Assembly: GCA_949300345.1 (NCBI GenBank)
Contig: CASGDR010000001.1
Coordinates: forward strand, 259,835-323,834
Direction: 5' to 3'
Length of the DNA: 64,000 nt
Source of the DNA: an uncultured bacterium
GTDB lineage: Bacteria > Bacillota_I > Bacilli_A > RFN20 > CAG-826
Shown: positions 19,744 through 55,535 of the stretch, in pieces
Layout: every line of letters starts with the position of its first letter
Position numbering within the stretch: the first letter of the stretch is position 1
Translations under genes and position numbers: made by a program
The notes under the pieces: model-generated
What the model was told of the DNA's origin: nothing
Databases searched by the model: none
The model's input: only the letters and a program-made list of their open reading frames with translations

Positions 19744-21553
19744 GCGTTTCTTCCTTTTCTTTCTTTTTCTTAGATTGGTGCTTTTTGACCAGGTCGATGC
19801 TCAGGAAGACCAAGAAGACGACCAAGGTGCCAAGTAGAGCCCCGAGGAAATCGATGCCGACATCCGACCAGGCCCCTGTCCTATCGGGGGTATATAGCTG
19901 AATAAATTCGCTGAGCGTGCCGAAGAATAGCCCCGAAGCCAGGGACAATCCGGTCGCATATAGATAACGGTATTTGTTCTTTTCGAACAGATAATGGAAG
20001 AAGAGATATCCGAATACGGCCTCGGCGGCGAATAAAAGGAAGTGGCCTCCGAATTTCCTAAGCCAGCTGGCAAAATCATCGACATTGTCCTCATTGATCT
20101 GCGGCCTATCGGTAACCGTAATGGCCAAGGTTTGTTCCAAAGAGGGATTGAGGACCGACCTGATGGCAAGAACAGCGGTGCCCGACTTGGTGCCGCCTAG
20201 GGTCAAAGAGGCGGTTCCGTTTCCGGAGACCGAAATGACATCGGGCTCGGAATTATCAACGACCTCGATGCCGGTAACCGGAACATTCTTGGGGGCAAAT
20301 ACCCCATTTACATAAAGGAAAGAGCCTACCGATAAGGTTGCCTCGTTTCCGATATTCAAGTTCATGGAGGTGGGTAAGGCGGTAGAGACATCCGCCTCGA
20401 TGGTCTTGGATTCCAGGTCGGTGCCGGGGAAATCGACGCTGACCACGACTTTACCTCTGGTACGATAGCCAAGTAAGCAGGCCGTCCTTTCGTCGATCCG
20501 CTTCAGGCGGGCATGGATATTGTCTTCATTGGTGATGCTAAAGGAAGCCACCCCGACATCCCCTTCCGTTTCGGCAGTGATGGTTAGGCCATAGCCACCT
20601 TCATAGAAATAGTCATAGTCATTCAGATAGGAAGAACCTTCGCTAGCAAGATGGAAGGAAGAGGGCGTTTCATAGATGCTTGAGGAGACATTGACAGTTA
20701 ACTCGATGGGGTTTTCTTTGCCTAGGGTAAGGTTCGTGGTTCCTTCCTTTAGGCCGGTCAGTACCATGTCAGCACTCAGGCTAGCCACGCTAGGATCGGA
20801 GAAACTGACCGGGATCCGGCTGGGGTCATAGACCCTTCTTAGATAATGGTCGACTTCGTTGAGGGCCCTATCTTCGCTCCAGGTATCATCGACCCCGACC
20901 CTAGAGGCCGCGGTGCCGCTGGAATCAAGCAGATAAAGAGGCAAAACACAGGATTCGTGGATGCCGAGGGAAAATTCGCTTTGGCTTACTTCGAACTCCG
21001 TGGGCTCGGCCAAGGGGACGATGTCGAATTCATAAAGGCAGCTCACCTCGCCCGAGGAAGCAGAGATGGAGAAGGTTCCCTCTTTCAGGCCCACGACATT
21101 GATGTAATTGGTAAGGGTGGCATTGCTTAGGCTACCTTGGGATACCACGATTTCATAATCTTCCTTCGTCCCGCTTACCCTGGTGACCTCGAAATTCTGG
21201 TCGTAGGCATCACCTTGCGGATAATGGAGGGTAAAAGTCAGCCTAGAAGATGAGCCGATGGCAATCTGCCCTTGCCCTAGGAAAGAGGAATCGTTGTCCA
21301 AGGTGATGGACTCGGGCTTGACCACGACGGGATTGTCGTTTCCGCCGAAGAGGTTGATGAAGAAGGCGCTGATGTTGGCCAGCCAATCGCTTTGGATGGA
21401 ACTGGCGCCGCCCGGGATCGCCGATTCGACGATGATAAGAAGGCTAAGAAAAGAAAAAATCCCGAGATAAACCCAGGTGCGGCGCTTGTATTTCCTTTCC
21501 TTGCCCTCTTCTTCCACGTAGGCAATTATCGCATAAGTGAAAGATTGAAACAA
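19727..21553 (-). CDS. VanZ-like family membrane protein with a ~430-aa extracytoplasmic insertion
   Basis: 608 aa. One N-terminal TM helix is followed by a long beta-rich domain rich in T, S, V and G. The C-terminal 3-TM region carries the VanZ signature (EFIQLYTPDRTGAWSDVGIDFLGALLG) and ends in a poly-Lys tail. Confidence 0.6.
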   Translation of the reverse strand: MFQSFTYAIIAYVEEEGKERKYKRRTWVYLGIFSFLSLLIIVESAIPGGASSIQSDWLANISAFFINLFGGNDNPVVVKPESITLDNDSSFLGQGQIAIGSSSRLTFTLHYPQGDAYDQNFEVTRVSGTKEDYEIVVSQGSLSNATLTNYINVVGLKEGTFSISASSGEVSCLYEFDIVPLAEPTEFEVSQSEFSLGIHESCVLPLYLLDSSGTAASRVGVDDTWSEDRALNEVDHYLRRVYDPSRIPVSFSDPSVASLSADMVLTGLKEGTTNLTLGKENPIELTVNVSSSIYETPSSFHLASEGSSYLNDYDYFYEGGYGLTITAETEGDVGVASFSITNEDNIHARLKRIDERTACLLGYRTRGKVVVSVDFPGTDLESKTIEADVSTALPTSMNLNIGNEATLSVGSFLYVNGVFAPKNVPVTGIEVVDNSEPDVISVSGNGTASLTLGGTKSGTAVLAIRSVLNPSLEQTLAITVTDRPQINEDNVDDFASWLRKFGGHFLLFAAEAVFGYLFFHYLFEKNKYRYLYATGLSLASGLFFGTLSEFIQLYTPDRTGAWSDVGIDFLGALLGTLVVFLVFLSIDLVKKHQSKKKKEKEETPKEGE

Positions 21554-21591: not shown

Positions 21592-22383
21592 GTGATGAAA
21601 CTTTTAGCCCTTTTTCCTGCCCTACTATTACCCCTAAGCCTCTTTTCGTGTTCCAGTAGCGAAAACATAATGCTAATAGATAGGAACGGAGACCTCAATG
21701 CTATGACCTCCAAGACCTATGAGGCGACCGGACGGCTCAGCGATTTCGATGATGTGAGGATGCGCGTCGAAGCCGGGGAAACCGTCTTTCTGGCCCTGGT
21801 GGGCGAAAGCTGCCTTACCTGCAAAAGATTCGAACCCTCCTTTGCCGCCTATGCGATCGAGGCAGGCATTTCATATTCCTATTTCCTCAATCCTTCCGGA
21901 GATCTTGCCGGGGCGGAGGCTTTTTTAAGCGACTGTCTGGCTTTATGGCACTACTTCGATGAGCTAGAGGACTATGAAATCGTCACTCCCATGCTCATGA
22001 GCCTAAGCCAAGACGGGGCCATGATATTCGACATCTTCTCCGGAAGCGACACGGCCACCTATTGGGGAGATAGCAAGACCAAATCCTATTTCGACCAATA
22101 TTTCTCCCTCTCGGAAGTCTCCTATTTCCAAGATCCTGAAAACGCCTTTTCCTACTATGAAGAAATCTCCGGCGAGAAGACCCTTTTCGCCATTAGTGAA
22201 GACGATAGCGAAGGACTAAGCCTCTTCTATAAGGATTACTACGCTAGCTACAAAAACGATGAAGGCAAGACTGCCATTCTCATATTCCCGGAAGAAAAAA
22301 CCACTGAGGTCCTTCAGTGGCTTTCCTTATCAAGTTATGCCCCAACCATCGTCCATGACGGACAGGTTTCGAGCTTGGCCTAA
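21592..22383 (+). CDS. lipoprotein with a thioredoxin-like CxxC motif
   Basis: Signal peptide with lipobox LSLFSC. A CLTC motif lies in the GESCLTCKRFEP context. The gene is divergent from the VanZ-like gene across a 38-bp gap. Confidence 0.5.
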   Translation: MMKLLALFPALLLPLSLFSCSSSENIMLIDRNGDLNAMTSKTYEATGRLSDFDDVRMRVEAGETVFLALVGESCLTCKRFEPSFAAYAIEAGISYSYFLNPSGDLAGAEAFLSDCLALWHYFDELEDYEIVTPMLMSLSQDGAMIFDIFSGSDTATYWGDSKTKSYFDQYFSLSEVSYFQDPENAFSYYEEISGEKTLFAISEDDSEGLSLFYKDYYASYKNDEGKTAILIFPEEKTTEVLQWLSLSSYAPTIVHDGQVSSLA

Positions 22384-34996: not shown

Positions 34997-36127
34997 CTAG
35001 CCTTCCTTCTTGGAAAACTTGCTGAATCTGGCCCGCGTGAGAGCGTAGGCCGTTTTCAGTTGCGGAAGATACATTTCCCTCATGGCCTTGTAGCGGGACA
35101 TTTCTTCCTCGCTGACCGAAGATAGGTAAATCGAAGAGAAGATCTTCTCGAGGCGGAAGAAGGATTCATATAGATTGAGCAAGGCCACAAGGTGGAAATA
35201 GTTCTTTCTGGAATAGATGAGAAGCGGCGAGCTATGCGCGATTTCCGAACTCATCTCATAGACCTTGGCGTATTCGTGCAGCCCGGCCGCCCGTTCGACC
35301 CCGTCGCGGAAGTTGAGCCGGAATTCCTCGAGGCTTTCGATATTGGGGATATCAAGCAGCCACCCGTATTCGATGTAGCGCTTCATGTCCTTGCTCTTGA
35401 GGTCGGCCTTCTTCATGCCTTCCTTTATTTCTAAGAAGCACTCGTCGGTCTTTTCCTTATCGCCAAGTCCGCCCCGGAAGGCCATGGCGTAGCGCAGGTG
35501 GCGGAGGTAGCTTTCCATCACCGGCTGGCCGTATTTGACCAAGACGGTGAGGATGCATTCGTTTTCATGCAGGGTCCTCCAGGTCGAAAAGGCCTCGGTC
35601 TCAAAGCCTTGGCTAAGAAGCAGCACGATGCACTTGCACATGGTGAAGGCCTTGTTCATGACATCCACCACAAGGGTGTTCTTGGGCTCGCCCTTCTTGT
35701 AGCGGGATAGCATCCCGAGGATGAAATTGAGATATAAGGCAATCGTGGATATTTCCGGATTATATTGGGAAACCAGTTTGGGATTTTGGAAGGAGAGGTG
35801 CTCGTTGGTGACGTATTTGTCCAAGGACATGCCGGCCAAGGCGCCCAGATACTGCTCGTTTTTGATGAGTTCCTTGGGATCGCTTCCGGGATGGGTGCCC
35901 TGATAGAAGGCATTTTCGTTGAAAAGATACAAGAGCAGCTGGACGTGGTTGATGGGGACCCCGGCCAGGGCTTTGTTGCCTTTGCAGAGTTCGACAAAGC
36001 CATCCAGGGCATGGCGATAGGCCTCATAGACGATGGGGGCGTCCTTTTCCTCGTCGAGCTTCAGGATGCTAGCAAGGCGCTTGACCCCATCGAGGCTCAT
36101 CAGATACGGCTTCGGGGCTTGCTCCAT
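34997..36127 (-). CDS. hypothetical cytoplasmic protein, third gene of the addB-addA operon
   Basis: 376 aa, predicted all-alpha, with no motif I recognise. Its start overlaps the addA stop. Confidence 0.5.
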   Translation of the reverse strand: MEQAPKPYLMSLDGVKRLASILKLDEEKDAPIVYEAYRHALDGFVELCKGNKALAGVPINHVQLLLYLFNENAFYQGTHPGSDPKELIKNEQYLGALAGMSLDKYVTNEHLSFQNPKLVSQYNPEISTIALYLNFILGMLSRYKKGEPKNTLVVDVMNKAFTMCKCIVLLLSQGFETEAFSTWRTLHENECILTVLVKYGQPVMESYLRHLRYAMAFRGGLGDKEKTDECFLEIKEGMKKADLKSKDMKRYIEYGWLLDIPNIESLEEFRLNFRDGVERAAGLHEYAKVYEMSSEIAHSSPLLIYSRKNYFHLVALLNLYESFFRLEKIFSSIYLSSVSEEEMSRYKAMREMYLPQLKTAYALTRARFSKFSKKEG

Positions 36128-42961: not shown

Positions 42962-44254
42962 TTACTTATCGAAGAAGGCTTCGATTTCCTCGACTTCCTT
43001 GAGGATGCCGCTTGAGAGGTTGATGCAGCCGGTTTCGGTGATGTAGAGATCGTCTTCGATCCTCACTCCGATGCCTAGCTCGGGAATGTATAGTCCGGGC
43101 TCATCGGAAATAACGCAGCCGGGCCTAAGGGGCACGTCGCGGTATGGCGTATTGTCAGCGCAGGAAAGGGGGTCATGGGTATCCAAGCCGATGAAGTGGC
43201 TGACCGAATGGAAATAGACATTGATGACGTCTTCGGGCTTATCGATGATGCCCTCCTCGACGAGCACCTTGGCGTAGTAATCGATCACCGCTTGGTTGAG
43301 CTGCCTCAAAGTCAGACCCGGACGGGCCAATGCAGCAATCATCTTGTTGGCCTCAAGGACGATAGAGTAGATCTTCTTCTGAAGGGGGCTGAATTTACCA
43401 CAAATCGGGAAGGTCCTGGAAATGTCGGCATTGTAATACCCATATCTGGCCCCGAGGTCCATCAGGACCATCTCGTCTTTGTAAATGGGCTCCTGTAGGG
43501 TCGTGTAATGCAGGACGGTTGCCCTTTTGCCGCCTGCCATGATGGTGGGAAAACTTAGTCCCTGATTGCCGGAAGCGTCGTTGATGACGTGGAGGAACTC
43601 GTTGGCAAGCTCATATTCCTTGACCCCGTCCTTGAAGCGGCGCATCACGGAACGGATGCCGGTGTCGGTAATGGAAATCGCGGTCTTGAGAAGGCTTATT
43701 TCCGATGGGGATTTGACTAGGCGCAGGCCGGTGATGAGACAATCGGCATCCACCTCCTGCAGGTAAGGGTATTTTTGGAGCAGTTGCTTCCTGAAGTCAA
43801 AGACCTCGACGCCGGGGGCAATCTTAAGTTCGCTTTGAAAGTCGCTGTACAAATAGGAAACCGGACCTAGTTGGAGGATGTTGGGATCGAGGATCTTTTC
43901 CAACATGGTTTCGAAGCTATTCCGGGGCAAGACATTGGTGATGCCGGATAGTTCCCTAGCCTCATCGTAGGTGAGCCTTTTGCCTGTCCATTTCTCCTTC
44001 CTTTCGTCATAGGGAGAAACAAAGAGGAAGGCTTTGGTCTCTCCCTCTCCCTTATAGAGCAATAGGGCCGAATCATCCTGGTCGATGCCGCTAAGGTAAT
44101 AGAAGTTATGATTGGCTTCGAAGGGATAGTCCTCATCGGCCGAGCAGATCTTCGGGACACCGGCAAAAAGGATGACGAGGCTATCTTCCTTGATGGCCTC
44201 GAACATGCGCTTGCGGCGGGCTTCGAATTCGGTATTTTCCAAGAATTGTTTCAT
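42962..44254 (-). CDS. pepP: M24B Xaa-Pro aminopeptidase
   Basis: 430 aa with a creatinase-like N-terminus and a pita-bread domain (HSVSHFIGLDTHD, metal ligands). Confidence 0.8.
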   Translation of the reverse strand: MKQFLENTEFEARRKRMFEAIKEDSLVILFAGVPKICSADEDYPFEANHNFYYLSGIDQDDSALLLYKGEGETKAFLFVSPYDERKEKWTGKRLTYDEARELSGITNVLPRNSFETMLEKILDPNILQLGPVSYLYSDFQSELKIAPGVEVFDFRKQLLQKYPYLQEVDADCLITGLRLVKSPSEISLLKTAISITDTGIRSVMRRFKDGVKEYELANEFLHVINDASGNQGLSFPTIMAGGKRATVLHYTTLQEPIYKDEMVLMDLGARYGYYNADISRTFPICGKFSPLQKKIYSIVLEANKMIAALARPGLTLRQLNQAVIDYYAKVLVEEGIIDKPEDVINVYFHSVSHFIGLDTHDPLSCADNTPYRDVPLRPGCVISDEPGLYIPELGIGVRIEDDLYITETGCINLSSGILKEVEEIEAFFDK

Positions 44255-44838
44255 ATGACTGCCTTCTTTCTAGCAAGGATTTTAGGCGCCCCAAGGCTAG
44301 GATAGCCTTCGAGGACCTTAGAGATTCTATCACTAAGAAGGAAAGTAAGACTGACGGAGTTAGTTCTCTCTTCCTTCCGGTATTCGATTTTCCTATGCCT
44401 TAAGGCATTCTCCAATGAGGGTGATATTTCAAAAGGCACTTCGAGAACGGCTTCTTCCAGATAGAGGATTTCCCCCACTTCGGCCTTGTCTAGGGCTTGC
44501 TTGATGCCCTCAAAGAAGGTCCTCTTGAGCCTTCCTACCCCGAGTTCGGTACCCCCGAAATACCTCGCGCATATTAGAAGCACGTCATCGAGTCCCCGGC
44601 TTCTAAGAAGGCTCAGGTAAGCAAGGCCGGCCACGCCGGATGGTTCCCCGTCATCGCTGCATCTTTCCTTGCCTTCGTGGACATAGGCAAAAGGATAATG
44701 CGAAGCCTTGGGGTATTCGTCTTTGAAAGCCGCGATGGCCTTCTCGGGATCATCCATCAAAGGTATGGCGGCGTAATGGAAGAGGGAGCCGAGGACCTTG
44801 AGGTAGGCCCCAGTGCGGTTTTTGATGCTTAAGGCCAT
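44251..44838 (-). CDS. yigZ: IMPACT/YigZ family protein (UPF0029)
   Basis: 195-aa YigZ-like fold. It lies 4 nt after the giant gene and overlaps the pepP start. Confidence 0.7.
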   Translation of the reverse strand: MALSIKNRTGAYLKVLGSLFHYAAIPLMDDPEKAIAAFKDEYPKASHYPFAYVHEGKERCSDDGEPSGVAGLAYLSLLRSRGLDDVLLICARYFGGTELGVGRLKRTFFEGIKQALDKAEVGEILYLEEAVLEVPFEISPSLENALRHRKIEYRKEERTNSVSLTFLLSDRISKVLEGYPSLGAPKILARKKAVI

Positions 44839-44842
44839 CTGC

Positions 44843-47800
44843 TCATTGGCCCCTAAGGGCAGTGAAGACGTTATTGGTATTGCTGGTTAAAGAGGTTTCG
44901 GCGAAGGGACGATAGACGTCATATCCCCCGCTACTAGAGAAGTCATAGCGCTTGGCATCAAGCGCATCATAAAGGGCGCCGGCATAGATGAAGTTACCAA
45001 GATCGAGTGCCGACTGGTCATCGCCACAGGCCAAGAGGATGTCGGCAATCTTGTCGAATTCCTCATTGAAGGAATACTGGTTGTCCGGATTGACGCTCAT
45101 GTAGCTAAGCAGGAGGATGCGGCCGAAGGCATAGAAGGACTGCTGGTCCTTGCTTAGTCCTCCATATCTATCCAGGGTTTCGCTGAAGGTGGCGTCATTA
45201 TATCCGCGTGGGAGATCCCCGCTATATACGGTGACCGAGGAAGTAGTGCCGTAAAGGGAACTCAATAGCGGACGGAAGATCCTCATGTTGTTCTCCCAGG
45301 CAGTCTGACCTTCCGGGGTTTGATAGCTGGATTTCCTATTATACATATCCGCATAAGTCATACTTACGGGCTGGGAGTCGTAATCATAGACAACATGGGT
45401 GCTATAGACGCTGTAATCGCCATACTCGGCGTTCATGGCCGCGATGTCCATGGATAGGCCGACATATAGATAGGAAGCGAATTTGGATCCGGCCGAGGTA
45501 GCATAGGCCTCATATTCATAGGGATAGACGGTCTCGAAATTCTGCCTTAATAGAGCATCCGAACGCAGCATGGTCAGGAAGGAACCGATCCTGGGGGTGG
45601 AGAAACCCTGCTGTGAAAGCTCAACCGTCGCTTCCTCGTAGGACTTCAAGGCAATAAGCGAAGGCAAAAGGCTATCCAGCGCAGCCCCTTCTTTGGGATA
45701 GCTGTATTCATTCTGGCTAGCATCCTCAAGGACGCCGAAGGCAGCCTCAAGGTTATACAAGGCATCGTTGGCTATAGAACCAGTTCCGTATCCCTCATTG
45801 AAATAGGAGGACATGTCTAGGGAGAGGGAATAAGAGATACCCAGATATGTGACCGAATAATTGATATCAAGCAACCGGGAGAAGACCACGGCCCGGCCGC
45901 TGACCTCATTCTGGCTACCGGAGGCCTGATAAGAGGCCACCGGGGTGGCATAGAAGCCGCCGCTGGCGCCGATGAACTCCAGCAAGGGTTCGGTCCCGAT
46001 GGCGGCGATGACTTCAAGGAAGCCCTGGGGGTTGGTGGCATCGAAGGAGAAGTAGCGGCTTTCGCCCTCCGCGCTGGGTTGCATTTCCAACCCTTGAAGG
46101 GCATCGACCAAAATGGGAATGGCCTCTTCCTGGTAGCGCACCCTGGCCTCTTCAGTAGTCATGGCCTCGCGGAAATAGAAGTCGCTCACGTCATTGAGGG
46201 CGCTGCAGGAAGTGATTTGCAAACTACTGGAAGTCCCGTTATAGGAAAGATCGAAGCCATAGGCCCCATATTCATCGATGGGAATAGTAAAGGCGTTGTT
46301 TTCACCGACCAGGGAAGAAAGGTCGATCTCAAAGCTGTGGTTCTCCCTATTGATGTCATGGACTATTAGGGTAAAGTCCGAGAGACTAACCATCTCGTTG
46401 GTGGTGAAGCTGATGGTTTCCACCCGTCCGATGTCGTCGCTGGTAATGCTTATCGAAGAACCCGAAATGAAATCTTGCAGATCGCTTTCATAAAGCGTGT
46501 ACTGCTCCATGATGACCGCGGTGGAAATCAGATAGTCGGTCTGGAAGGCCACCGAACCGGCAACGGTCTTCAAATCGTTGATGGCGCTGAGGATGGATTC
46601 GATTTCCTCGGGAGTGAAGGTATCAAGGACATCGCGGAGGTTGGAGACATCATCCAAAGAGGAAGAGGACATGCCCGAATCCTGCCAGGCCTCGATGAAG
46701 CCTTTGGTAGTGCTATCGCTACCGATGGTAAGGGCCTGGATTTCATGCAAGATGTATTCGGCCCCTTCCGCCCTAAGGAATATGATGGAGTCATAAAGCT
46801 TGTTGGAACCGCCGATCTCATTGCCTGATAAATCCCTTAGATCATAGTAGTATTCTGCTTCGGTTGTACCGGGAGTCCTATTATAAAATGCCTGCAAATC
46901 CGCCATATCCTGCAAGAAATGGGTACCGCTGGAATTGGTTAGGGAGAGCATGAAGAGGGCGTCTTGCACCTCATCGAAATAGAAGGACGCGAAGCCTTTG
47001 GAGGAGAAGAAGGTGAATAGCATCTGCTCCAAAACGGTGAGGTTATTGGGCAAGACATCGATCTGGCTACGGATGGCGCTGGCATTGGCGGGATTGGGCT
47101 CGGCGCGATGGAAGACATAGGATTCGGCCAAGACCATCATGGTGTCGTGGATCTTGATCGGGGAGATGTAGTCCAAGACCTCGGGATTGAGCAATTCGGA
47201 GTTGGAATCCAGAACCTCGACGCAGGAGGCGATGGCCTCGATTTCGCTAGCGGGGTAGCGGCGGCTCCAGTCGGACTCGGAAGTCATGGAGGCGCTATCC
47301 TCGTCGAAGTAATAGTTGAAGAAGGGATAAGCCAAGGAGAAGTCGATCTTGGAGGATGCCCCGTAATCCTTATCGAGTTGGGTCAGGAAATTGTCGATGA
47401 TGTTGGGCACCAGATCATAGAGAAGCTCGCTGCTATTGAGCGCGGTCAATACGGTATAGATTTCATCCGAGGAGAGATCCTCAATGGAGAAGGAGCCGTC
47501 CTTGATGAGCGGAACGATGGCCGCCAGGGCCTGCCCTAGCCCACCGTCTTTGCCGTCGATATAGCTTCTCTGCAACGAGTTCCCTTGGGGATAGTCGACG
47601 ATGGAAATCTCACTGCCGTCGGGGTTGACCCAAGTAGCGGGGAAGTAATATTCGCTGACTAGGTAATCGATATAGCTATCCGAATCGGTGATTTCGGGAT
47701 GATCTGCCAATACGGCTTGTATCTTCGGATTCCTTTCATTGAAGATGTATTCGGCCACGACGTCCTCGGACATCACGGAAATCATCGTGCTTTGGAAGAA

Positions 47801-50800
47801 GGTCAGGGTCTGCCCTTCCGCCACGGTGTTGAAAATATGCGATGAGTGCAGATAGACGAGCAGGGAAATGGTCTCATCGGTATTGGCGAAGGTCGTACCG
47901 GTGACCTGGGATACCCCATAGAGGATTTCCACCAAAAGGTCGGTTTCCGAAACGCTGGGTGTCACTTCCCCTTCTTCCAGATAACCTGAAAGCCCGAAGC
48001 CATAGCCAAGATCGGGATCGACATAATCGAAATTGGCCTGATCAAGACTCACCCCGCCAAAGGCAATGGAAGCAGTTTCGATATTGGCTTTGATCTGGAC
48101 CAAAAGGGCCGGGAAGAGGAGTTTGGAGCTATCCATCTCAAGCAGAAGGGCCTTCAGGGTGTCCTTCTTCTCCTGCACCGAAGAGGGGTTGCCGGAGAAA
48201 TAGGCCTGGATGTCGCTCAAACAGGACATGTTGATGTTGCCCTCATCATCGATGAAGCCGCCATCGCGGGCAATTTCCAAAACGGTGACCAAATGGTTGG
48301 TTTCCTCATTCCAAAGGGAGTGGTCGCTTAAGGTGGGGTCGATGCTCAGCAAATACCCGTCGACATCATCCTGGCTGGAACTTCCGTATAGCCCGGAGTC
48401 AGATAGCCATTGGCCGATCAATCCCTCGGCTGCGGTCAGCTCGGTCCTAGCGCTGGTTCCGTCATAGCCGTAAAGGGTATTGAAGATGTTGGAATTCAGC
48501 AAGGACTCAAAGACGGGACGGACCAGGTATTCGGGATCGAGGTGGCTAAGTCCCATATCGGTGACGATCTGTCCGTTTTCGATAAGGCCATAGGTCGGGT
48601 CCAAAACGGCAGTGGCCAAGGTCTTCAGATGCTTGAGTTCGGCCTCCCTTATCTCCAGGTTCCCATAGTTATCGAATAGATAGGCCACGTTGGCGTTATC
48701 CAGCCTCGAATAGCCGCTTTCCTCGCGGAAGGAATCGCCCATCGCGTCCCTCAATTCGATGACGAGGCGGGTAAGGATGAGCTTGCCAAAGGCATCGCAC
48801 TCCGAGAGGGCATCGAGGAACTCGGTGGCCTTATAGGGGCTAAGGGAACTGATGGAGGCTATGGCATCGAAACCGCCAAACGACTGCAAGAGGGCGATGA
48901 GGTCACACCAGGCCGCGGATTCCCCGTCCCAAGCTTCGGGGGTATCCAGAGCCAAAAGCGATTCTTTGAGGATATCGTATTCCTGCCCTTCAAGGACCGC
49001 CAAATCCTGCTTGGAGGATGAGGTGTCCAAATAGGTCGCCTGCAGGAAATCCTCGGCTTCGGTGCCCTCAATGGAAGAGGTTAGTGTTTCATAGATGAAT
49101 TCAGGGAAGAGGAATTCGCCCTCAGGCGACATGAACAGCTGGCTGTTGGCGCAGACATTGAGGATCCCCTCGATGGACTCCGGATCGGAATTGAAGAAGT
49201 CGATGTTGGAAAGATCGCCCACTTCCGAGGCAAAGACCAATAAGGAATAGATGCCATCCCCTTCCTTGGCCCAGTCGGTCACGTTATGGAAGCTGATTCC
49301 GCTATCTTCGCCAAACAAGGTCGGCAAGAGATAAGTATCGAACATCTCGCTGAGCCCGTTTTCCAAAATGAAGGACTCCCCGATCGAGGCAAAGATGGCT
49401 ACGAAGTCTGCCCTAGAGATGTTGGTAAGCACCCGCAGCATAGAGGAAATCTCCGTAGAAGCAGCGTCGCTCAATAGATATTGCAGCAATCCTGTATCGT
49501 TCATCGCAATCAGGGTGTCGGCGATCGCCACGTTCTCGGCATGGGTATCGATGTTCTGGAAATCGCTGACCGAGAAGATGGAGGACTCGCTTCCGAAGGA
49601 GAAGAGATTGTCCATCATCATCGCGTAGTTGGTGTTGATTACCGTGTTGCCCTGTGCATCCGTCGTATCGGGATTGAGGATCTTGGAATCGGCCACCAGA
49701 TCGAGCAGGTAGCTAAGGACCGAAACCGTTTCCCCTTCGCTTACTACGGTTTCCTCTAGCAGCCTTGTAAGGGTATCAAGGCTCGAGGAGAGGTCTGAAG
49801 CATCGAGGTTCTGCAAATCAGGCAGGAAGGGATTGAGGGCTTGGACCCCACGGATCAAGGAAGCCAATTCCGAGCCGAGGTTATCGGCCTTGAAATCAAG
49901 TGGCAGGGCCCCTTCTCCGAGCAGGTCGGCCACAATGCCGGTATCCTCGACATAGTATTCGATGACCGGCGGAAGAATGGCGGTGGCCACCAGCGATTCG
50001 TCGAATTGGTTCAAGGCATCGACCAAAGCGTCATATAGGTCGTCATTGACGGAGACGAGCTTGCCGTTGGGGTCGATGTAGATGCCCGGATGCTCATCGA
50101 AGTCTTCCATCAGCTTCACGGCATCGGGATGCCCGTCGAGGAATTGCACCATGACGCCAAGCAGGGCGTGGAACTCCCCCTTGTAGTTGATCATGGTCTG
50201 GACCCGGTTTTCCAAATCGAGCTGTTCGACGACCGAATCCATGTCGATATTGATGTTGCCTTCCCCGAGGCTTTCGTTGATGGTGCTAGCCAAAACCTGA
50301 AGGACCTTGTCTAGTCCGTTGATGATTAGATCGCTATCGAAAAGGCAGCTCGTATCCCCGTCCGACTTCCCGGTCGTAGGATCGATTTCGTTAAGATCGC
50401 CTACCATTAGTTCGCTGATTTCCTGGGGATGGTTGGCTATGAAGGAAAGGATGGGATCAAGGTCAATCTCCCCGGAATTGTCGACCAAAGAAGCGATGAG
50501 GTCATTGAGGAATTGGCTATCGATGGAGACGGCATTGAAGACAAAGTCATATAGATAGGTAAGCTCGTCGCCCCATTTGATGTCCTTGAATTCGTCGGTC
50601 ACCCCGACCGGAATCCCGTCTTTGAAGACATAGGTGGACTCGGGCATGAAGTCGGAGATCGAAAGGGTGGTATCGCTTTCGGGAGAGGGATTTTTAACCT
50701 CGTTGGCGCAGGCGACATAGGCCAAGGAATCGAGGATATTTTCCAGAAGTTCCCAGCTGCCGTCATCCAAGGAATCGAAGATTTCGAGGATTTCCTCGCG

Positions 50801-52021
50801 GGTTTCCTCTTGGAAGAAGTCGATGAGGTAATCGGTGTTGTAGCCAAGGTTGCCGGCCTCATCGGTATTGACGCCTTCGAGGGCTCCCGAATCGAAGACG
50901 GCCTGATAAAGTGCGGCCAATTGTTCGAAGGTTCCCTCCCATTGCTCGGAGGTGCTATCGATGCCCTCGACGGTCCTGAGGTAATTGCCTATATCGGTGA
51001 TGTTGGTGGCCACCTGGAAGGCATAGGGCATGACCGTGGTGACAAGCTGCGAGCCCGCTAGGCTATATAGGATCTGCGGGGTGGACTCGGAAGTGATCAA
51101 GGTGGCTACGATTTCGCCCTGGGTGGAATCCTCGAAGTCGACGCCGGTGGCCATGATGTTGGAAGCGATGCTTACCACCGAGGAGAGCTCAGTGACGAAG
51201 CTGACGGTCGTGCCTCCGATATTGGAAGCGGTCAAAGCCTCGATGAGCATTGCGTCGAAGGTCTTGCCCGAGCCGGCCGTCCAATTGAAGAAGGCCTGGG
51301 CAAAGATGGAATTCTCATAGGCATCAAGGACATCGACGATCTGGCCATAGGTTGAATCATCGGCATAGAGCTTCTCGCCGTTTTCGTCTACCCTAGCGAC
51401 CCCTTGGTTGATGGTATTGATGATGGCCGATAGAGGGAAAATCACCATGCATCCGCAGGTTAAGGAAATGATTACGGCCGTAAGGGCATTCCAGATACGC
51501 CCTTTGCGGAGTTTCCTCTTCCTTGTCTGGGCCTTGAAGAACCACCGGAACATGACATACCAGAAAAAGCTGGTAAGCCAATTGATCAAGGTGATGAGCA
51601 ATAGGCCATAGGCTATCAGAAGGAAGATCTTCAGAAGCGAACTGGTCAATGAGGTGGCATAGGCCGTAAGCGAGGCCGGATCCAAGGTGGTCCCGAGGGC
51701 GATGAGGGTCTGCTCGATCAGTTCCTCCATCGTCGCAAACGGGGTGGTCAAAGGCACCGATATGACATACGCATCATAACTGAAGGAAATGTTCGTGCCT
51801 AAGAAGGAAAGGTCGATATCGCCAATGACGCCGGCCATGGCATCTAGACTAAGCAGCATCACCAATATCCAAAGGGCATAGACCAAAAGGCGGTAGACGG
51901 CATAGCGCCATCCGTGCAGGAGTCCCCAGAGAAAAGAGATCAAAAGCGAGGCCAAAACCGCCCAAAAGGCGATGGTAAGCCCCAAAGAGAGGAATTCGAT
52001 TATCTGGGCGAAATCAGGCAT
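44843..52021 (-). CDS. giant acidic membrane-anchored protein (2392 aa), unknown family
   Basis: Single uninterrupted ORF. The N-terminal ~200 aa hold 4-5 TM helices with a positive-inside loop (KAQTRKRKLRKGR). The remaining ~2150 aa are rich in D, E, S, T, L, N and Y, very poor in K and R, have few Cys, and show no LPXTG motif or tandem repeat visible by eye. Confidence 0.8.
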   Translation of the reverse strand: MPDFAQIIEFLSLGLTIAFWAVLASLLISFLWGLLHGWRYAVYRLLVYALWILVMLLSLDAMAGVIGDIDLSFLGTNISFSYDAYVISVPLTTPFATMEELIEQTLIALGTTLDPASLTAYATSLTSSLLKIFLLIAYGLLLITLINWLTSFFWYVMFRWFFKAQTRKRKLRKGRIWNALTAVIISLTCGCMVIFPLSAIINTINQGVARVDENGEKLYADDSTYGQIVDVLDAYENSIFAQAFFNWTAGSGKTFDAMLIEALTASNIGGTTVSFVTELSSVVSIASNIMATGVDFEDSTQGEIVATLITSESTPQILYSLAGSQLVTTVMPYAFQVATNITDIGNYLRTVEGIDSTSEQWEGTFEQLAALYQAVFDSGALEGVNTDEAGNLGYNTDYLIDFFQEETREEILEIFDSLDDGSWELLENILDSLAYVACANEVKNPSPESDTTLSISDFMPESTYVFKDGIPVGVTDEFKDIKWGDELTYLYDFVFNAVSIDSQFLNDLIASLVDNSGEIDLDPILSFIANHPQEISELMVGDLNEIDPTTGKSDGDTSCLFDSDLIINGLDKVLQVLASTINESLGEGNINIDMDSVVEQLDLENRVQTMINYKGEFHALLGVMVQFLDGHPDAVKLMEDFDEHPGIYIDPNGKLVSVNDDLYDALVDALNQFDESLVATAILPPVIEYYVEDTGIVADLLGEGALPLDFKADNLGSELASLIRGVQALNPFLPDLQNLDASDLSSSLDTLTRLLEETVVSEGETVSVLSYLLDLVADSKILNPDTTDAQGNTVINTNYAMMMDNLFSFGSESSIFSVSDFQNIDTHAENVAIADTLIAMNDTGLLQYLLSDAASTEISSMLRVLTNISRADFVAIFASIGESFILENGLSEMFDTYLLPTLFGEDSGISFHNVTDWAKEGDGIYSLLVFASEVGDLSNIDFFNSDPESIEGILNVCANSQLFMSPEGEFLFPEFIYETLTSSIEGTEAEDFLQATYLDTSSSKQDLAVLEGQEYDILKESLLALDTPEAWDGESAAWCDLIALLQSFGGFDAIASISSLSPYKATEFLDALSECDAFGKLILTRLVIELRDAMGDSFREESGYSRLDNANVAYLFDNYGNLEIREAELKHLKTLATAVLDPTYGLIENGQIVTDMGLSHLDPEYLVRPVFESLLNSNIFNTLYGYDGTSARTELTAAEGLIGQWLSDSGLYGSSSQDDVDGYLLSIDPTLSDHSLWNEETNHLVTVLEIARDGGFIDDEGNINMSCLSDIQAYFSGNPSSVQEKKDTLKALLLEMDSSKLLFPALLVQIKANIETASIAFGGVSLDQANFDYVDPDLGYGFGLSGYLEEGEVTPSVSETDLLVEILYGVSQVTGTTFANTDETISLLVYLHSSHIFNTVAEGQTLTFFQSTMISVMSEDVVAEYIFNERNPKIQAVLADHPEITDSDSYIDYLVSEYYFPATWVNPDGSEISIVDYPQGNSLQRSYIDGKDGGLGQALAAIVPLIKDGSFSIEDLSSDEIYTVLTALNSSELLYDLVPNIIDNFLTQLDKDYGASSKIDFSLAYPFFNYYFDEDSASMTSESDWSRRYPASEIEAIASCVEVLDSNSELLNPEVLDYISPIKIHDTMMVLAESYVFHRAEPNPANASAIRSQIDVLPNNLTVLEQMLFTFFSSKGFASFYFDEVQDALFMLSLTNSSGTHFLQDMADLQAFYNRTPGTTEAEYYYDLRDLSGNEIGGSNKLYDSIIFLRAEGAEYILHEIQALTIGSDSTTKGFIEAWQDSGMSSSSLDDVSNLRDVLDTFTPEEIESILSAINDLKTVAGSVAFQTDYLISTAVIMEQYTLYESDLQDFISGSSISITSDDIGRVETISFTTNEMVSLSDFTLIVHDINRENHSFEIDLSSLVGENNAFTIPIDEYGAYGFDLSYNGTSSSLQITSCSALNDVSDFYFREAMTTEEARVRYQEEAIPILVDALQGLEMQPSAEGESRYFSFDATNPQGFLEVIAAIGTEPLLEFIGASGGFYATPVASYQASGSQNEVSGRAVVFSRLLDINYSVTYLGISYSLSLDMSSYFNEGYGTGSIANDALYNLEAAFGVLEDASQNEYSYPKEGAALDSLLPSLIALKSYEEATVELSQQGFSTPRIGSFLTMLRSDALLRQNFETVYPYEYEAYATSAGSKFASYLYVGLSMDIAAMNAEYGDYSVYSTHVVYDYDSQPVSMTYADMYNRKSSYQTPEGQTAWENNMRIFRPLLSSLYGTTSSVTVYSGDLPRGYNDATFSETLDRYGGLSKDQQSFYAFGRILLLSYMSVNPDNQYSFNEEFDKIADILLACGDDQSALDLGNFIYAGALYDALDAKRYDFSSSGGYDVYRPFAETSLTSNTNNVFTALRGQ

Positions 52022-52114
52022 TGGTCGACCTTTTTGTTAGGGGCCCAAAGCCCCAACACGCGTTATTATGGCAAAACTTTGCCCTTATTGCTATCGCAAT
52101 GTATCATTTTGGCC

Positions 52115-52969
52115 ATGGGTATCTTCCTAGGAAACAAACTTTGCGAAAACTGCTCGAGGTCCTATGACAGGGCCAAGGACAAATGCCCCCACTGCGGATA
52201 TGAGAATCCCGACCCGCGCTCAAGGGGTTTCATCAACTTCGAACCTCCCGGCGTCCCAAGGGAGCTTGCCCTATGCTTCGGCGGCTATCTGATGCTGACG
52301 TTTGTGGCTGCCATAGTCCAATTCATATACATCGGGATTTTCTCCGCCGGCTATACCGGTAGCGAAGCGGATTATGCCAAAGCCCTAAGCGACTACCTCA
52401 TGGCCCCCTCCCAGCTTTCGGTCATCCAATATGTCTCCTACGGGGTGGTTGCCGTGGCGGTCTGCGCCTTGTTTATCGGACATTGGAAGCCGCTTTTGCG
52501 GAAATTCCGGCCCAAAAGGATGTATTGGGCGGCCATTGCCTTCATTGGCATGTACGCCTTCAACATCTTCTATAGCCTCATTCTGAATGCGGCCGGGGTT
52601 TCCATCTCCGACAACGAAAACCAGAGCCTGGTGGTAAGCCTGGTCCGATACAATGTTCCCCTAGCGATAATCTTCCTGGGGCTAGTGGGTCCCTTGGTCG
52701 AGGAGTTCATCTACCGGGTCGGGGCCTTCGGCTTGCTCTCTCGCATCAACAAATACGCGGCCTATGTCCTTGGGGCCATCATATTCGGACTCATCCATTT
52801 CGATTTCACCAACCCCAGTGTCAACGAACTGCTAAACCTCCCCAACTACATCGTCCCGGGCCTACTGCTTTGCCTAGCCTATGATAAGTGCGGCCTCATC
52901 GCCTCCTACAGCGTCCACGCCTTGAACAACGTGCTTTCGGTGATCCTTGCAGCCGCCGGGGTGAAATGA
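52115..52969 (+). CDS. CPBP (CAAX/Abi) family intramembrane metalloprotease with an N-terminal zinc-ribbon
   Basis: Start taken at the ATG at 52115, after the end of the divergent giant gene. The N-terminus carries CENCSRSYDRAKDKCPHCG. CPBP motifs are EEFIYR, FGLIH and HALNN. Confidence 0.7.
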   Translation: MGIFLGNKLCENCSRSYDRAKDKCPHCGYENPDPRSRGFINFEPPGVPRELALCFGGYLMLTFVAAIVQFIYIGIFSAGYTGSEADYAKALSDYLMAPSQLSVIQYVSYGVVAVAVCALFIGHWKPLLRKFRPKRMYWAAIAFIGMYAFNIFYSLILNAAGVSISDNENQSLVVSLVRYNVPLAIIFLGLVGPLVEEFIYRVGAFGLLSRINKYAAYVLGAIIFGLIHFDFTNPSVNELLNLPNYIVPGLLLCLAYDKCGLIASYSVHALNNVLSVILAAAGVK

Positions 52970-53886
52970 TGCAAGAAGAACTCGAACTCTCCCGCTACCC
53001 AGGGCCCAAATCCATGAAGCTGGACGGCTTCTGGCTGAAGATCCTCGGCTTGTTTTTCATGACCCTCGACCACATCGGGCTAGCCATGAACGGCCCGGAA
53101 GGCTCCCCTTTATATTGGGCTTCCTTTGTTTTGAGGATCTTCGGTAGGTTAGCCTTCCCCATCTTTGCCTTATTGCTTGCCGAGGGATTGAAGCACACCC
53201 ACTCCAGGGGCCTATATATGTTAAGGATTTCCATCATGTGGGGTTCCATCATGGTGGTGCAGGCCATACTTATCTTCTGCTTTGGCTTTGACGGGCTTCA
53301 GGAGCAGGCCTTCTCCGACCTCATCGGGATGGGCATGTTCATCTATCTTCTTGAACATAGGAAGAAATGGCTGAGGCCCTTCTGTATCATCCCCTTTGCC
53401 TATCTAGCCGCATCCTACGCCATCAGGATCTATTCCAACTACACCGTCGCGGTAAGCGACTTCCTCTTCCTCTTCGGAGGATATTCGATGCTGGGTTTCT
53501 TCATCTTCCTCGGCTTCTATTATTCCGAGAAGATCGTCAGATGGTCCTTCTCCCTCAATTCGACCTTCGATGACAAAGCCATATTGGACGAATATGCCAA
53601 ATCCGGGGCCTTCCGCTTCTATAGCAACCTGATGGGCGTCTTCCTGATGATAGTGAGCTGCACCATTTTCTACGCCATTGCGTTATGCACCCAGAACTCC
53701 GAAGGGATATCCCTAGCCGACCCCTATGGGATGGGGACCCAGTTCTACTGCGTCTTCTCGGGGTTGCTTATCGCTTGCTATAACGGAAAGCGTGGGTACA
53801 ATGCAAAGTGGTTCCAGTACGGAAGCTATCTCTACTATCCCCTGCATCTGCTTGTGATATTCGGGATTGCCTATCTGGTTGCCTAA
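52966..53886 (+). CDS. TraX family membrane protein
   Basis: Start taken at MMQEELEL, overlapping the CPBP stop (ATGA). The LKILGLFFMTLDHIG N-terminal signature and polytopic topology fit the TraX family. Confidence 0.6.
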   Translation: MMQEELELSRYPGPKSMKLDGFWLKILGLFFMTLDHIGLAMNGPEGSPLYWASFVLRIFGRLAFPIFALLLAEGLKHTHSRGLYMLRISIMWGSIMVVQAILIFCFGFDGLQEQAFSDLIGMGMFIYLLEHRKKWLRPFCIIPFAYLAASYAIRIYSNYTVAVSDFLFLFGGYSMLGFFIFLGFYYSEKIVRWSFSLNSTFDDKAILDEYAKSGAFRFYSNLMGVFLMIVSCTIFYAIALCTQNSEGISLADPYGMGTQFYCVFSGLLIACYNGKRGYNAKWFQYGSYLYYPLHLLVIFGIAYLVA

Positions 53887-54261: not shown

Positions 54262-54338
54262 GGACCATTGGTGTAGCGGCCTAACATGCCTCCCTGTCAC
54301 GGAGGAGACCACGGGTTCGAATCCCGTATGGTCTGCCA
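54262..54338 (+). tRNA. tRNA-Asp (GTC)
   Basis: Cloverleaf by eye. The anticodon stem-loop is CCTCC-CTGTCAC-GGAGG, the T-arm is ACGGGTTCGAATCCCGT, and the 3' end is GCCA. Confidence 0.85.
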
Positions 54339-54341
54339 GAC

Positions 54342-54415
54342 GCAGGTGTAGTTCAGTGGTAGAACATCAGCCTTCCAAGCTGACTATGCGAGTTCGATTC
54401 TCGTCACCTGCTCCA
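54342..54415 (+). tRNA. tRNA-Gly (TCC)
   Basis: GCAGGTGTAGTTCAGTGGTAGAAC...TCAGC-CTTCCAA-GCTGA...GTTCGATTC...CACCTGCTCCA, lying 3 nt after tRNA-Asp. Confidence 0.85.
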
Positions 54416-54420
54416 CTCGA

Positions 54421-54450
54421 AAAAAGCCCCGACAATGTCGGGGTTTTCTT
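54421..54450. terminator. rho-independent terminator after the tRNA pair, also positioned to terminate the convergent 54450..55535 gene
   Basis: AAAAAG-CCCCGAC-AAT-GTCGGGG-TTTTCTTT. Confidence 0.6.
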
Positions 54451-55535
54451 TACTGATCGGACTCGTCGTCCTTTATTTTGGCTTCGCCGTCGATGACGCC
54501 GTCGCGCTTGGCTTTCTCGTCTTCGATGTCCTGCCTCATCTTATCGAGGTTGGCTTGGGTGGCCGCTTGGCTTTGCTCGGCGGCCCTGATTGCAGACTCG
54601 GCCATCTTGAAGGCCGATTCCTTGATGCCGAGGTCGCGGTCTTCGCATAGATGGTACTCGAGCAGGAAAATGTAGGGACCCAATATTACGGCGAAGAGAA
54701 TGAGCCCGGCCACTCCCCCGCAGACGGCATAGCCGGTGATGTAATAGATCTGTCCCGGATAGCAGATGACCCAGGTAAGGGAAGCGCCTAGTACGAAGCC
54801 CCCTGCTAGCAATAGATAGACCGGCCATAGGCCCTTATAGAGGCTGGAGGAGAAACTACGGTCCTCCATCTTATAGAGCCTTTTGAGCATCAATGCCGCC
54901 ATGGGGTTGAAACCCTTGGCCAGGCGCCGGCGGAATTCGACGTTGGAGCTTTCCTGGATGATGAAGAAAGCGGCCAAAACGATGAAGATCCCGGCCTGGG
55001 CGATGGCCTCGCCGAAATAGAAATAGGATAGGGCGGAGCCTTCCGAAAGGATGGAGATGGCCAGATTCAGATCGCCGGCGGATACGGCTTGGCCAAGACG
55101 GGACAAGGCATCGGCGAAGGAGGGATCGTTGATGAGGACCCCATAGGCGATGGATAGGCCGATGGTCCCTAGAAGAATCGAGAAAAGCCAGGACTTGATG
55201 ATGCTCCAAGTAACCCTATAAGAGCCATAGTAGAGGGGCTGGAAATAGGCCCCGACCCTTTGGAAGAAGCCGGAGGCGGACAAAAAGCCCCTGTTGTTGC
55301 GTAGGTAAAGGACGGTCAGATGCATCCCGAAGAAAAACGGAATGAAGATGAAAGGCAGGGTGATGATGAGCAGGCTATAGGAGAGGAAGCCTAGGGCCAG
55401 AGCGGCAGCCCCCATGGCGGTGACCGCGAGCATGATGGGCCAAAGCCAGGGCAATATCTTCCAATAGTCGCTTAGGGCCCTAAGATAGGGCGATTTGGTT
55501 TTTTCAGGCATCTTTTTCCCTCTTGTAGTAAGCAT
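54450..55535 (-). CDS. hypothetical polytopic membrane protein with a charged C-terminal tail
   Basis: 361 aa with about 8 TM helices. The C-terminal ~60 aa are rich in K, E and D and predicted helical. Confidence 0.5.
   Translation of the reverse strand: MLTTRGKKMPEKTKSPYLRALSDYWKILPWLWPIMLAVTAMGAAALALGFLSYSLLIITLPFIFIPFFFGMHLTVLYLRNNRGFLSASGFFQRVGAYFQPLYYGSYRVTWSIIKSWLFSILLGTIGLSIAYGVLINDPSFADALSRLGQAVSAGDLNLAISILSEGSALSYFYFGEAIAQAGIFIVLAAFFIIQESSNVEFRRRLAKGFNPMAALMLKRLYKMEDRSFSSSLYKGLWPVYLLLAGGFVLGASLTWVICYPGQIYYITGYAVCGGVAGLILFAVILGPYIFLLEYHLCEDRDLGIKESAFKMAESAIRAAEQSQAATQANLDKMRQDIEDEKAKRDGVIDGEAKIKDDESDQ

Follow-up and report, generated by a model that had tools for sequence, protein, structure and literature searches.

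CvpA, a membrane protein of ~160–200 amino acids (aa) that is conserved across phyla, is needed by enteric pathogens for colonization of the gut and for resistance to bile, and its mechanism has remained enigmatic. By its Pfam architecture, the transmembrane (TM) region of MarP (Rv3671c) of Mycobacterium tuberculosis presumably belongs to the same family. CvpA spans the membrane four times and has both its N terminus and its C terminus on the extracytoplasmic side (bioRxiv 10.1101/2020.09.25.314492), and MarP, which acts in acid and envelope stress, bears a periplasmic domain on its four N-terminal TM helices (PMC4992679). Here, we analyze a stretch of 64,000 nt (the window; ~53% G+C) on contig CASGDR010000001.1 of an uncultured bacterium and, within it, one giant gene on the reverse strand (44843..52021), whose product we would class with the membrane proteins of CvpA type, as one that bears a giant ectodomain without precedent.

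The giant protein resembles CvpA in its four predicted TM helices with both ends probably outside, in possibly corresponding motifs, G-x-x-[RK]-G-[FWV] right after TM1 and R-x-x-G leading into TM4, in a C-terminal extension of variable length that we place outside the membrane, and in its occurrence in gut bacteria. It differs from CvpA in the sheer size of its ectodomain (2180 aa) and in a TM2–TM3 loop of ~50 residues that contains a beta-hairpin. With MarP, it shares the plan of four N-terminal TM helices and a large extracytoplasmic C-terminal domain; the external domain of MarP, however, is a chymotrypsin-fold protease of 200 aa, whereas that of the giant protein is predicted to be an acidic, nonenzymatic-looking solenoid ten times larger, and neither Pfam nor a comparison with the Protein Data Bank (PDB) revealed a protease signature in it. 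Other giant surface proteins that invite comparison are Gli349 and Gli521 of Mycoplasma mobile, P1 and HMW of Mycoplasma pneumoniae, Ebh, and the Bap/RTX adhesins. The likeness lies in the very large size, the attachment to the membrane and the presumed location on the surface of a wall-less cell. In contrast to them, the giant protein resembles no PDB entry in sequence or fold and contains no beta-rich or Ig-like arrays, LPXTG or RTX, and its gene is syntenic, not variable, and present once per locus.

The guts of humans, chickens and ruminants commonly harbor RFN20 and other uncultured Bacilli related to them. Candidatus Enteromonas belongs to the order RFN20 and family CAG-826 of GTDB, and its genomes are ~1.2 Mb in size with 57% G+C (PMC8035907). 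In CAG-826 and CAG-288, peptidoglycan is predicted to be absent, and RFN20 are without sortases and, by prediction, without complete pathways for teichoic acids (PMC10868615). As the membrane- or wall-anchored surface polyanion of Bacillota, teichoic acids provide a functional analogy to the giant protein, although they are phosphate polymers and not protein, and the analogy is drawn from charge alone.

Results

The Giant Gene and Its Family

Reread from its ATG start to the stop, the open reading frame (ORF) is uninterrupted, as the original prediction had it, and the ORF list and translation agree on a product of 2392 aa. The protein is rich in Leu (11.8%), Ser (10.7%), Asp (8.2%) and Glu (7.0%) and poor in Lys (2.0%) and Arg (2.2%), with 11 Cys residues and an isoelectric point of ~4.05. 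Past residue 215, the body of ~2180 residues consists of 16.1% Asp and Glu (D+E) and 4.0% Lys and Arg (K+R) and carries a net charge of −264, so that the computed composition agrees with the extreme acidity, scarce basic residues and few cysteines noted earlier. The body is strongly polyanionic in the query and the family alike: the family medians are 15.5% for D+E and 7% for K+R, and the D+E excess lies between 3.9 and 15.2% in all 151 members checked.

The gene is real and conserved. Compared with the copy in its closest relative (locus L020, 98% identical), it shows 68 synonymous and 41 nonsynonymous codon differences, giving a ratio of nonsynonymous to synonymous rates (dN/dS) of ~0.18, and only two indels, both of a single codon and in frame; the nonsynonymous differences and the indels are clustered at residues 2147–2279. 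Each of the 20 related loci contains exactly one copy, a few of which end at contig edges, and an internal stop, which would have marked the gene as a pseudogene in close relatives, is absent from every relative examined. We give practically no credence to a spurious long ORF or a decaying pseudogene, given the purifying selection, the in-frame-only indels, the hundreds of full-length homologues and the confident core of the predicted structure; the only argument for such a reading is the missing annotation. Paralogues were not found in the flanks of the 20 loci, and a paralogue expansion was rejected on the single copy per locus. A mobile or phage origin was likewise rejected, the surrounding window being a core housekeeping region.

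A word-indexed homology search with the whole protein or the whole-family alignment gave only 10–11 matches, among them ten full-length relatives of 2233–2483 aa with identities from 98% down to 20%, all without names, and the same kind of search with a profile of the N-terminal domain returned a single fragment. When HMMER was run exhaustively with a profile of residues 1–1060 (1064 profile positions), the yield at E ≤ 1e-3 was 553 representatives of 50%-identity clusters, of which 220 reach E ≤ 1e-30; nearly all matches are 1500–3000 aa long and span the complete 1064-position profile. Labeled members read "hypothetical protein [Bacilli bacterium]," with a single exception that is called "CvpA family protein [Bacillales bacterium]" (P0153 in NCBI). 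The matches in genome collections are all from uncultured organisms, including "Mollicutes bacterium UMGS482," Candidatus Alloenteromonas pullistercoris and Candidatus Enteromonas sp., "Bacilli bacterium" metagenome-assembled genomes (MAGs) from rumen, reindeer and goat, and "Erysipelotrichaceae" MAGs from digesters. The labeled members are all from uncultured, reduced-genome Bacilli of RFN20 type. Pfam and NCBIfam gave no match for the query and no family for the body in eight homologues either; the family is large, without a model in either database and without a prior name or study, and this is the first description of it as an orphan family.

The genome had been guessed to be wall-less looking. 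The guess is reasonable, and a wall-less cell is probable, because the relatives are of RFN20 type (PMC8035907) and CAG-826 is predicted to be free of peptidoglycan (PMC10868615).

The Membrane Anchor

Kyte–Doolittle hydropathy and AlphaFold2 (AF2) models concur on TM helices at residues ~4–35, 38–67, 115–161 and 175–207. From the anchor of four to five TM helices with a KR-rich loop that the original prediction described, the multiple spans and the loop are borne out, and the count is four. The loop between TM3 and TM4 reads KAQTRKRKLRKGR; over 14 family members, it contains on average 8.1 K+R vs. 0.4 D+E. The mean net charges of 14 diverse members, −1.4 for the N-terminal tail, +1.7 for loop 1, −4.1 for loop 2 and +7.6 for loop 3, form a positive-inside pattern, which argues strongly for a topology with both N and C terminus outside.

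The family consensus just past TM1 is G-L-[LI]-[RH]-G-[WFV]-[RWK], and R-[LI]-x-[GS] leads into TM4. In the query, the first reads GLLHGW, and its G33 and G37 are conserved at 87–88% across 136 members; R175 and P196 are the invariant residues of the anchor. CvpA is reported to have three Gly and one Asp that are nearly invariant, and for this Asp, no counterpart stands out. Colicin_V (PF02674) is the sole Pfam family matched by more than one member: it was hit by P0153 (20.8 bits, E 4e-4), by three N-terminal slices out of 14, with E 9.7e-6 for the best of them, and by 3 of 26 distant full-length members. In an hhalign comparison of a 14-member N-terminal profile with the single Escherichia coli CvpA, TM1 and GLLHGW fall, at low probability, in register with SLIRGF of the latter. 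Matches of N-terminal domains to EI24/CysZ (E 0.008) and to the VTT domain (E 0.006) occurred in one member each and were treated as noise.

We therefore read the anchor as a divergent domain of CvpA type whose two ends probably lie outside. This reading has fair support but stops short of formal membership in PF02674. The earlier verdict of "no recognizable family" accordingly holds for the body of ~2180 residues and fails for the anchor, which is recognizable as of divergent CvpA (Colicin_V) type. As a CvpA-type anchor has both ends out, TM4 would act as a signal-anchor and the entire acidic body would lie outside the cytoplasmic membrane, and this too is fairly supported; the grounds for surface exposure are the positive-inside rule and the topology known for CvpA, and MarP sets a precedent for such a plan (PMC4992679).

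Architecture of the Probable Ectodomain

AF2 was run on two halves of the protein, residues 1–1200 (mean predicted local distance difference test [pLDDT] 71.6) and 1201–2392 (pLDDT 57.6), with a predicted TM-score of ~0.5. Both models are almost purely helical (~90% alpha) with short beta-hairpins, and in the first of them, the pLDDT past residue 400 is mostly 70–90; the body is predicted to be all-helical and solenoid-like.

Conservation is concentrated toward the membrane. The proximal part begins with a juxtamembrane motif, DAYxNSIFAQxFFNW, at residues 232–247, which includes Y235 and S238, and the residues conserved family-wide over 136 members (D256, P332, E616, S676, N783, W917 and E920) all fall, with those of the anchor, within residues 1–1035.

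Farther out, the protein turned out to be repetitive. The original prediction had seen no tandem repeats by eye and had proposed a self-comparison; profile–profile alignment overturns that claim and reveals at least four cryptic repeats of 208–240 aa, with borders at 961–1177, 1178–1394, 1395–1634 and 1635–1842 (hhalign, tiles of the family profile vs. the complete profile; probability 95–99%, E 1e-8 to 1e-17). Each repeat closes with S-x-[IVL]-F-[NH], and the later ones also have LT[VF]FEQ; a weaker half-copy is found at 827–960, and the alignments hint at a sub-period of ~110 aa. Within the giant protein, the repeats are only 10–24% identical to each other and no tandem repeat was found in the DNA of the gene, which explains why they are invisible by eye. 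Two distant members, P0009 and P0010, have extra copies in their C-terminal halves.

The repeats are followed by a region in which AF2 places strands (~1843–1944, residues 643–744 of the C-half model) at a pLDDT of ~50–62 and in which Ser and Thr make up 25%. This predicted small beta-sandwich, of low confidence as it is, makes the earlier statement that Ig-like segments are absent doubtful, although the protein has no array of Ig-like repeats. The remaining tail has a Tyr content of 8.8%, aligns with weak conservation, is modeled at a pLDDT below 50 and accounts for most differences between the query and its closest relative. Its very end is an exception: the last 10–15 residues (window 44846–44920, reverse strand) are conserved in the family. 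A motif [FWY][ST][FY]xx[VI]A is found at the end of 29 of 110 members, whereas its frequency among control windows is 1%; a second form, FxFExYG, is found in 11 of the 110 (controls at most 1%); the query ends with ...NNVFTALRGQ.

Comparison with Known Folds and Motifs

A clear homologue in a characterized family was sought with profiles, in the PDB and with Foldseek on the AF2 halves, and none was found. The best hit of a PDB profile search had an E value of 0.18; Foldseek against the PDB reached 0.037 and 0.12 for the two halves, with TM-scores of ~0.1. The Foldseek lists consist mostly of karyopherins, CAND1, Ufd2p and nucleoporins, that is, of generic alpha-solenoids: these HEAT/ARM proteins, long arrays of stacked helices, are the best, nonsignificant structural neighbors of both halves. 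Among anchoring and sorting signals, scans of the giant protein for LPXTG and LPXTG-like, YSIRK and CAAX motifs, for the RTX nonapeptide GGxGxD and for an N-terminal lipobox all came out negative (the first Cys is residue 189, within TM4), and neither the query nor eight homologues gave a Pfam or NCBIfam match to SLH, CWB2 or other known S-layer anchors. Anchoring by LPXTG, RTX or lipid was rejected on the missing motifs, and RFN20 are without sortases (PMC10868615). With no family match, only generic solenoids in the PDB and no known motifs, the body is, as far as the models can tell, an unclassified alpha-solenoid-like domain; the original prediction was right about the lack of LPXTG and in recognizing no described adhesin, S-layer, RTX or other family, to which the predicted fold now adds.

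Discussion

The reading that we favor, tentatively and in the knowledge that it may well be wrong, is that of a constitutive, CvpA-linked polyanionic layer on the surface of a naked membrane. The variable periplasmic tail of CvpA would have expanded, in reduced-genome gut Bacilli that are probably deficient in peptidoglycan and teichoic acids, to a long, anionic, semirigid alpha-solenoid; expressed constitutively from a housekeeping operon of the giant gene, yigZ and pepP, the solenoid would coat and space the naked membrane, and its fixed anionic layer would buffer cations and repel anionic detergents such as bile salts, maintaining the integrity of the envelope. The core task would fall to the conserved proximal half, with the variable distal tail facing the environment, and the CPBP protease and TraX protein encoded divergently next to the gene may, judging by gene order alone, mature or modify the product. 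A core rather than an accessory role is indicated by the single copy per locus, by a strict synteny that includes housekeeping genes and persists to 20–25% identity and by the concentration of conserved residues in the first 1035 positions. An envelope role would fit the loss of wall polymers in this lineage as well as the only phenotypes known for CvpA, which concern deoxycholate resistance and envelope stress.

We are more doubtful of a farther-reaching idea, that the envelope of RFN20 is built on protein, with the CvpA module, expanded to a polyanionic extracellular alpha-solenoid of 2000–3000 residues whose fold has no solved relative, serving as a dedicated layer that replaces peptidoglycan and teichoic acids in cation buffering, spacing and the detergent barrier. 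If true, it would be a previously unrecognized kind of cell-envelope component and would give the periplasmic tail of the CvpA family its first clear job, the layer possibly being matured by a conserved CPBP–TraX module.

Several observations speak against the surface layer and its link to CvpA. The query itself has no match to PF02674 even at E ≤ 10, the scores of all relatives are below the gathering score of 29.3 bits of that family and the hhalign comparison with E. coli CvpA reached a probability of just 16% over 32 residues. The AF2 models are of moderate-to-low confidence and do not fix the overall shape. Among the members are some recovered from anaerobic digesters and some whose genomes have larger gene sets, and a role specific to bile or to wall-less cells is not established; the conserved gene order may reflect slow rearrangement in the lineage. 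Of the novel envelope, adhesion or ion-binding structure envisaged at the outset, the giant, acidic, multi-TM-anchored protein is real, but ion binding has lost ground: in the giant protein, DxDxDG-like calcium motifs are not found, Dx[DNS]x[DNS] occurs at the frequency of shuffled sequences and the idea of calcium binding was set aside for want of any motif above that frequency. Finally, a conserved and moderately hydrophobic helix at ~315–345 (...LPIAxxIAxN..., window 50987–51079, reverse strand) exceeds a Kyte–Doolittle hydropathy of 1.6 in 64 of 133 members, the query not among them; were this helix a membrane span, the body would end up in the cytoplasm.

Mycoplasmas have acidic cytoskeletal giants, and with a fifth TM helix at ~315–345, the acidic solenoid would lie inside the cell as a membrane-tethered, cytoskeleton-like organizing platform. 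To the hydropathy of the helix can be added that AF2 is unsure in this region (pLDDT below 50 over residues 291–365), that a ParA/MinD-like ATPase adjoins the giant gene in distant relatives and that the nearest weak fold matches are cytoplasmic solenoids. The helix is, however, well under the true TM helices in hydropathy (median 1.55 and ~1.0 in the query and its nearest relatives vs. 2.06–2.86 for the four), it has polar and charged residues inside and Lys and Arg cluster on neither of its flanks; 4% K+R would be extreme for a cytoplasmic protein, and the topology of CvpA has the C terminus outside. The helix could dip into the membrane or belong to the core, and we regard a cytoplasmic scaffold as improbable. 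Rather unlikely, though less so, is a surface adhesin or fibril, in which the solenoid would be a stalk that shows the Tyr-rich tail and beta-sandwich to mucus, dietary polymers or cells. The distal ~550 residues are indeed variable, nonsynonymous changes and indels cluster there, the tail is rich in Tyr with the predicted sandwich near the tip and a membrane-anchored display is plausible in the sortase-free RFN20 (PMC10868615). Yet, adhesins are usually multicopy, patchy and fast evolving, whereas the giant gene is strictly syntenic, under purifying selection and present once per locus; a known adhesin domain, LPXTG and an array of Ig-like repeats were all not found, and the most conserved stretch, 1000 residues, exceeds what a passive stalk needs.

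The remaining two alternatives, both of which we hold about as improbable as the scaffold, concern the anchor and the neighboring genes. CvpA is genetically tied to K+ transport and to sigma-E envelope stress, has been linked to MscS and MscL by similarity, and a function in sensing or binding has been suggested for its periplasmic tail (bioRxiv 10.1101/2020.09.25.314492); the ectodomain might then sense ionic strength, pH or membrane stress and gate or otherwise regulate the four-helix module as a CvpA-type channel, and a Na+/H+ exchanger and the ATP synthase are within the window, although not adjacent. With 2180 residues, however, it is far above known sensor domains, nothing links the body to ligand binding and the channel idea for CvpA is itself speculative. 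Alternatively, and compatibly with the other readings, the protein could be a precursor that the CPBP protease cleaves and TraX modifies, such that all or part of the ectodomain is released or reanchored. In eight of eight loci, including those whose remaining flanks are different, the genes for CPBP, TraX and thioredoxin are divergently adjacent; the CPBP family includes myxosortase and a component of lipoprotein N-acylation (PMC11980579, PMC7387801), and the motif at the extreme C terminus is conserved. Gene order is nevertheless the sole evidence for this, the end motif, having no Cys, TM helix or basic tail, is unlike known sorting tags and thioredoxin is a housekeeping protein, so the cluster may be ancestral synteny.

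A lineage in which the outer tail of CvpA seems to have grown to an acidic domain of 2000 residues is a natural handle on the role of that tail, and a universally conserved giant, present once per locus, is an obvious candidate for the protector of a wall-less membrane. Defining the family, with at least 553 clusters at 50% identity, would clear much "hypothetical protein" annotation and provide a lineage marker. The family is abundant and lineage defining, and it bears on the function of CvpA and on how wall-less gut Bacilli build their envelope.

Gene Neighborhood and Other Features of the Window

The tight series of giant gene, yigZ and pepP and the divergent CPBP–TraX–thioredoxin genes, both reported in the original prediction, agree with the coordinates (Table 1). 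Beyond pepP follow a gene for an FGGY kinase and then addB and addA. An AGG-containing, purine-rich stretch lies ~8–11 nt upstream of the giant ATG; a scan for promoters and terminators gave a number of sites not above chance, and the only Rfam features in or by the giant gene are two tRNAs beyond thioredoxin. The mechanical ORF of the CPBP gene (51914..) overlaps the giant gene by 108 nt, an artifact of an upstream GTG; the likely start is the ATG at 52115, matching the 284-aa gene call in L020. The start of traX was taken from the 306-aa call in the same locus, the mechanical ORF beginning at 52888.

Table 1. Positions in the window of the giant gene, the parts of its product and the adjacent genes
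Feature	Position	Strand	Basis
Whole giant gene	44843..52021	−	2392 codons and stop; ORF list, dN/dS, stop-free relatives
CvpA-like four-TM anchor, residues 1–215	51377..52021	−	Hydropathy, AF2, charge statistics, Colicin_V matches in relatives
KR-rich TM3–TM4 loop, residues 159–176, predicted cytoplasmic	51494..51547	−	Sequence
Membrane-proximal helical part, residues 216–960, most conserved	49142..51376	−	Conservation over 136 members; AF2
Four cryptic tandem repeats, residues 961–1842, predicted all-alpha	46496..49141	−	Profile–profile self-comparison
Predicted small beta-sandwich, residues 1843–1950, low confidence	46172..46495	−	AF2 strands
Variable Tyr-rich tail, residues 1951–2392, then end motif	44846..46171	−	Alignment, composition, pLDDT
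yigZ / IMPACT_N (UPF0029)	44251..44838	−	Pfam PF01205, E 1.2e-21; 4 nt past giant stop
pepP, Xaa-Pro aminopeptidase, M24	42962..44254	−	Pfam PF00557, PF05195; 4-nt overlap with yigZ
Divergent intergenic region giant/CPBP, 93 bp	52022..52114	.	Sequence
CPBP/Rce1-like intramembrane protease, 284 aa	52115..52969	+	Pfam PF02517, E 1.6e-14
TraX-family membrane protein	52966..53886	+	Pfam PF05857, E 4.7e-20
Thioredoxin, 101 aa	53903..54208	+	Pfam PF00085, E 5.3e-26

Synteny was studied in eight loci with gene calls (L013–L020), covering identities from 98% to ~20%. The divergent genes for CPBP, TraX and thioredoxin adjoin the giant gene in this order in all eight, and Impact_N/YigZ is found zero or one gene downstream in all of them and directly downstream in five (L013–L016 and L020). 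Where YigZ is the immediate neighbor, stop and start codons often overlap or nearly abut, and the two genes probably share an operon. In the other three, one gene intervenes: it encodes a ParA-like ATPase in L017 and, in L019, a polysaccharide deacetylase, and the ParA-like gene of L018 is just past YigZ; L019 keeps the arrangement of giant, CPBP and YigZ genes though the rest of its neighborhood differs. ATPases of ParA/MinD/CbiA type adjoining the giant gene or yigZ are located at 17643–18461 in L016, 13732–14520 in L017 and 14142–14963 in L018, and there is none in the query window.

TraX is the N-acetylase that acetylates F-pilin. CPBP enzymes, for their part, include the surface-protein sorting protease myxosortase (PMC11980579) and LnsB, a component of lipoprotein N-acylation (PMC7387801). 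Given these roles, CPBP and TraX could form a new protein- or lipoprotein-modifying module in these Bacilli. The CPBP protease has an N-terminal cytoplasmic zinc-ribbon, CxxC...CxxC, which accounts for a weak match to Ribosomal_L37e.

The window as a whole is a core chromosomal region with leuS, glgA/C/D, prkC-prpC-rlmN, priA, the F-ATPase, the Na+/H+ exchanger and addAB. The PrkC-type Ser/Thr kinase (10073–10951, −), which lies by a PP2C gene (10944–11699, −), has 292 aa and, in Pfam, the kinase domain only; a kinase without PASTA domains would be expected of a cell that has no peptidoglycan. Directly downstream of thioredoxin are the genes for tRNA-Asp(GTC) at 54262–54338 and tRNA-Gly(TCC) at 54342–54415, both on the forward strand, followed by a strong terminator-like hairpin at 54427–54443 on the strand opposite to them. 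ORFs of 458 aa (12738–14114, −) and 263 aa (21592–22383, +) have no Pfam family at E ≤ 1e-5, and one of 361 aa (54450–55535, −) has none at E ≤ 0.01; a 608-aa ORF (19727–21553, −) matches only a C-terminal VanZ domain. A DUF5677 gene of ~375 aa is located directly past addA in L015 (26202–27335) and L020 (25901–27031) and past the FGGY kinase in L016 (21208–22329), and in the window, a 376-aa ORF of equal length (34997–36127, −) occupies the position of this gene.

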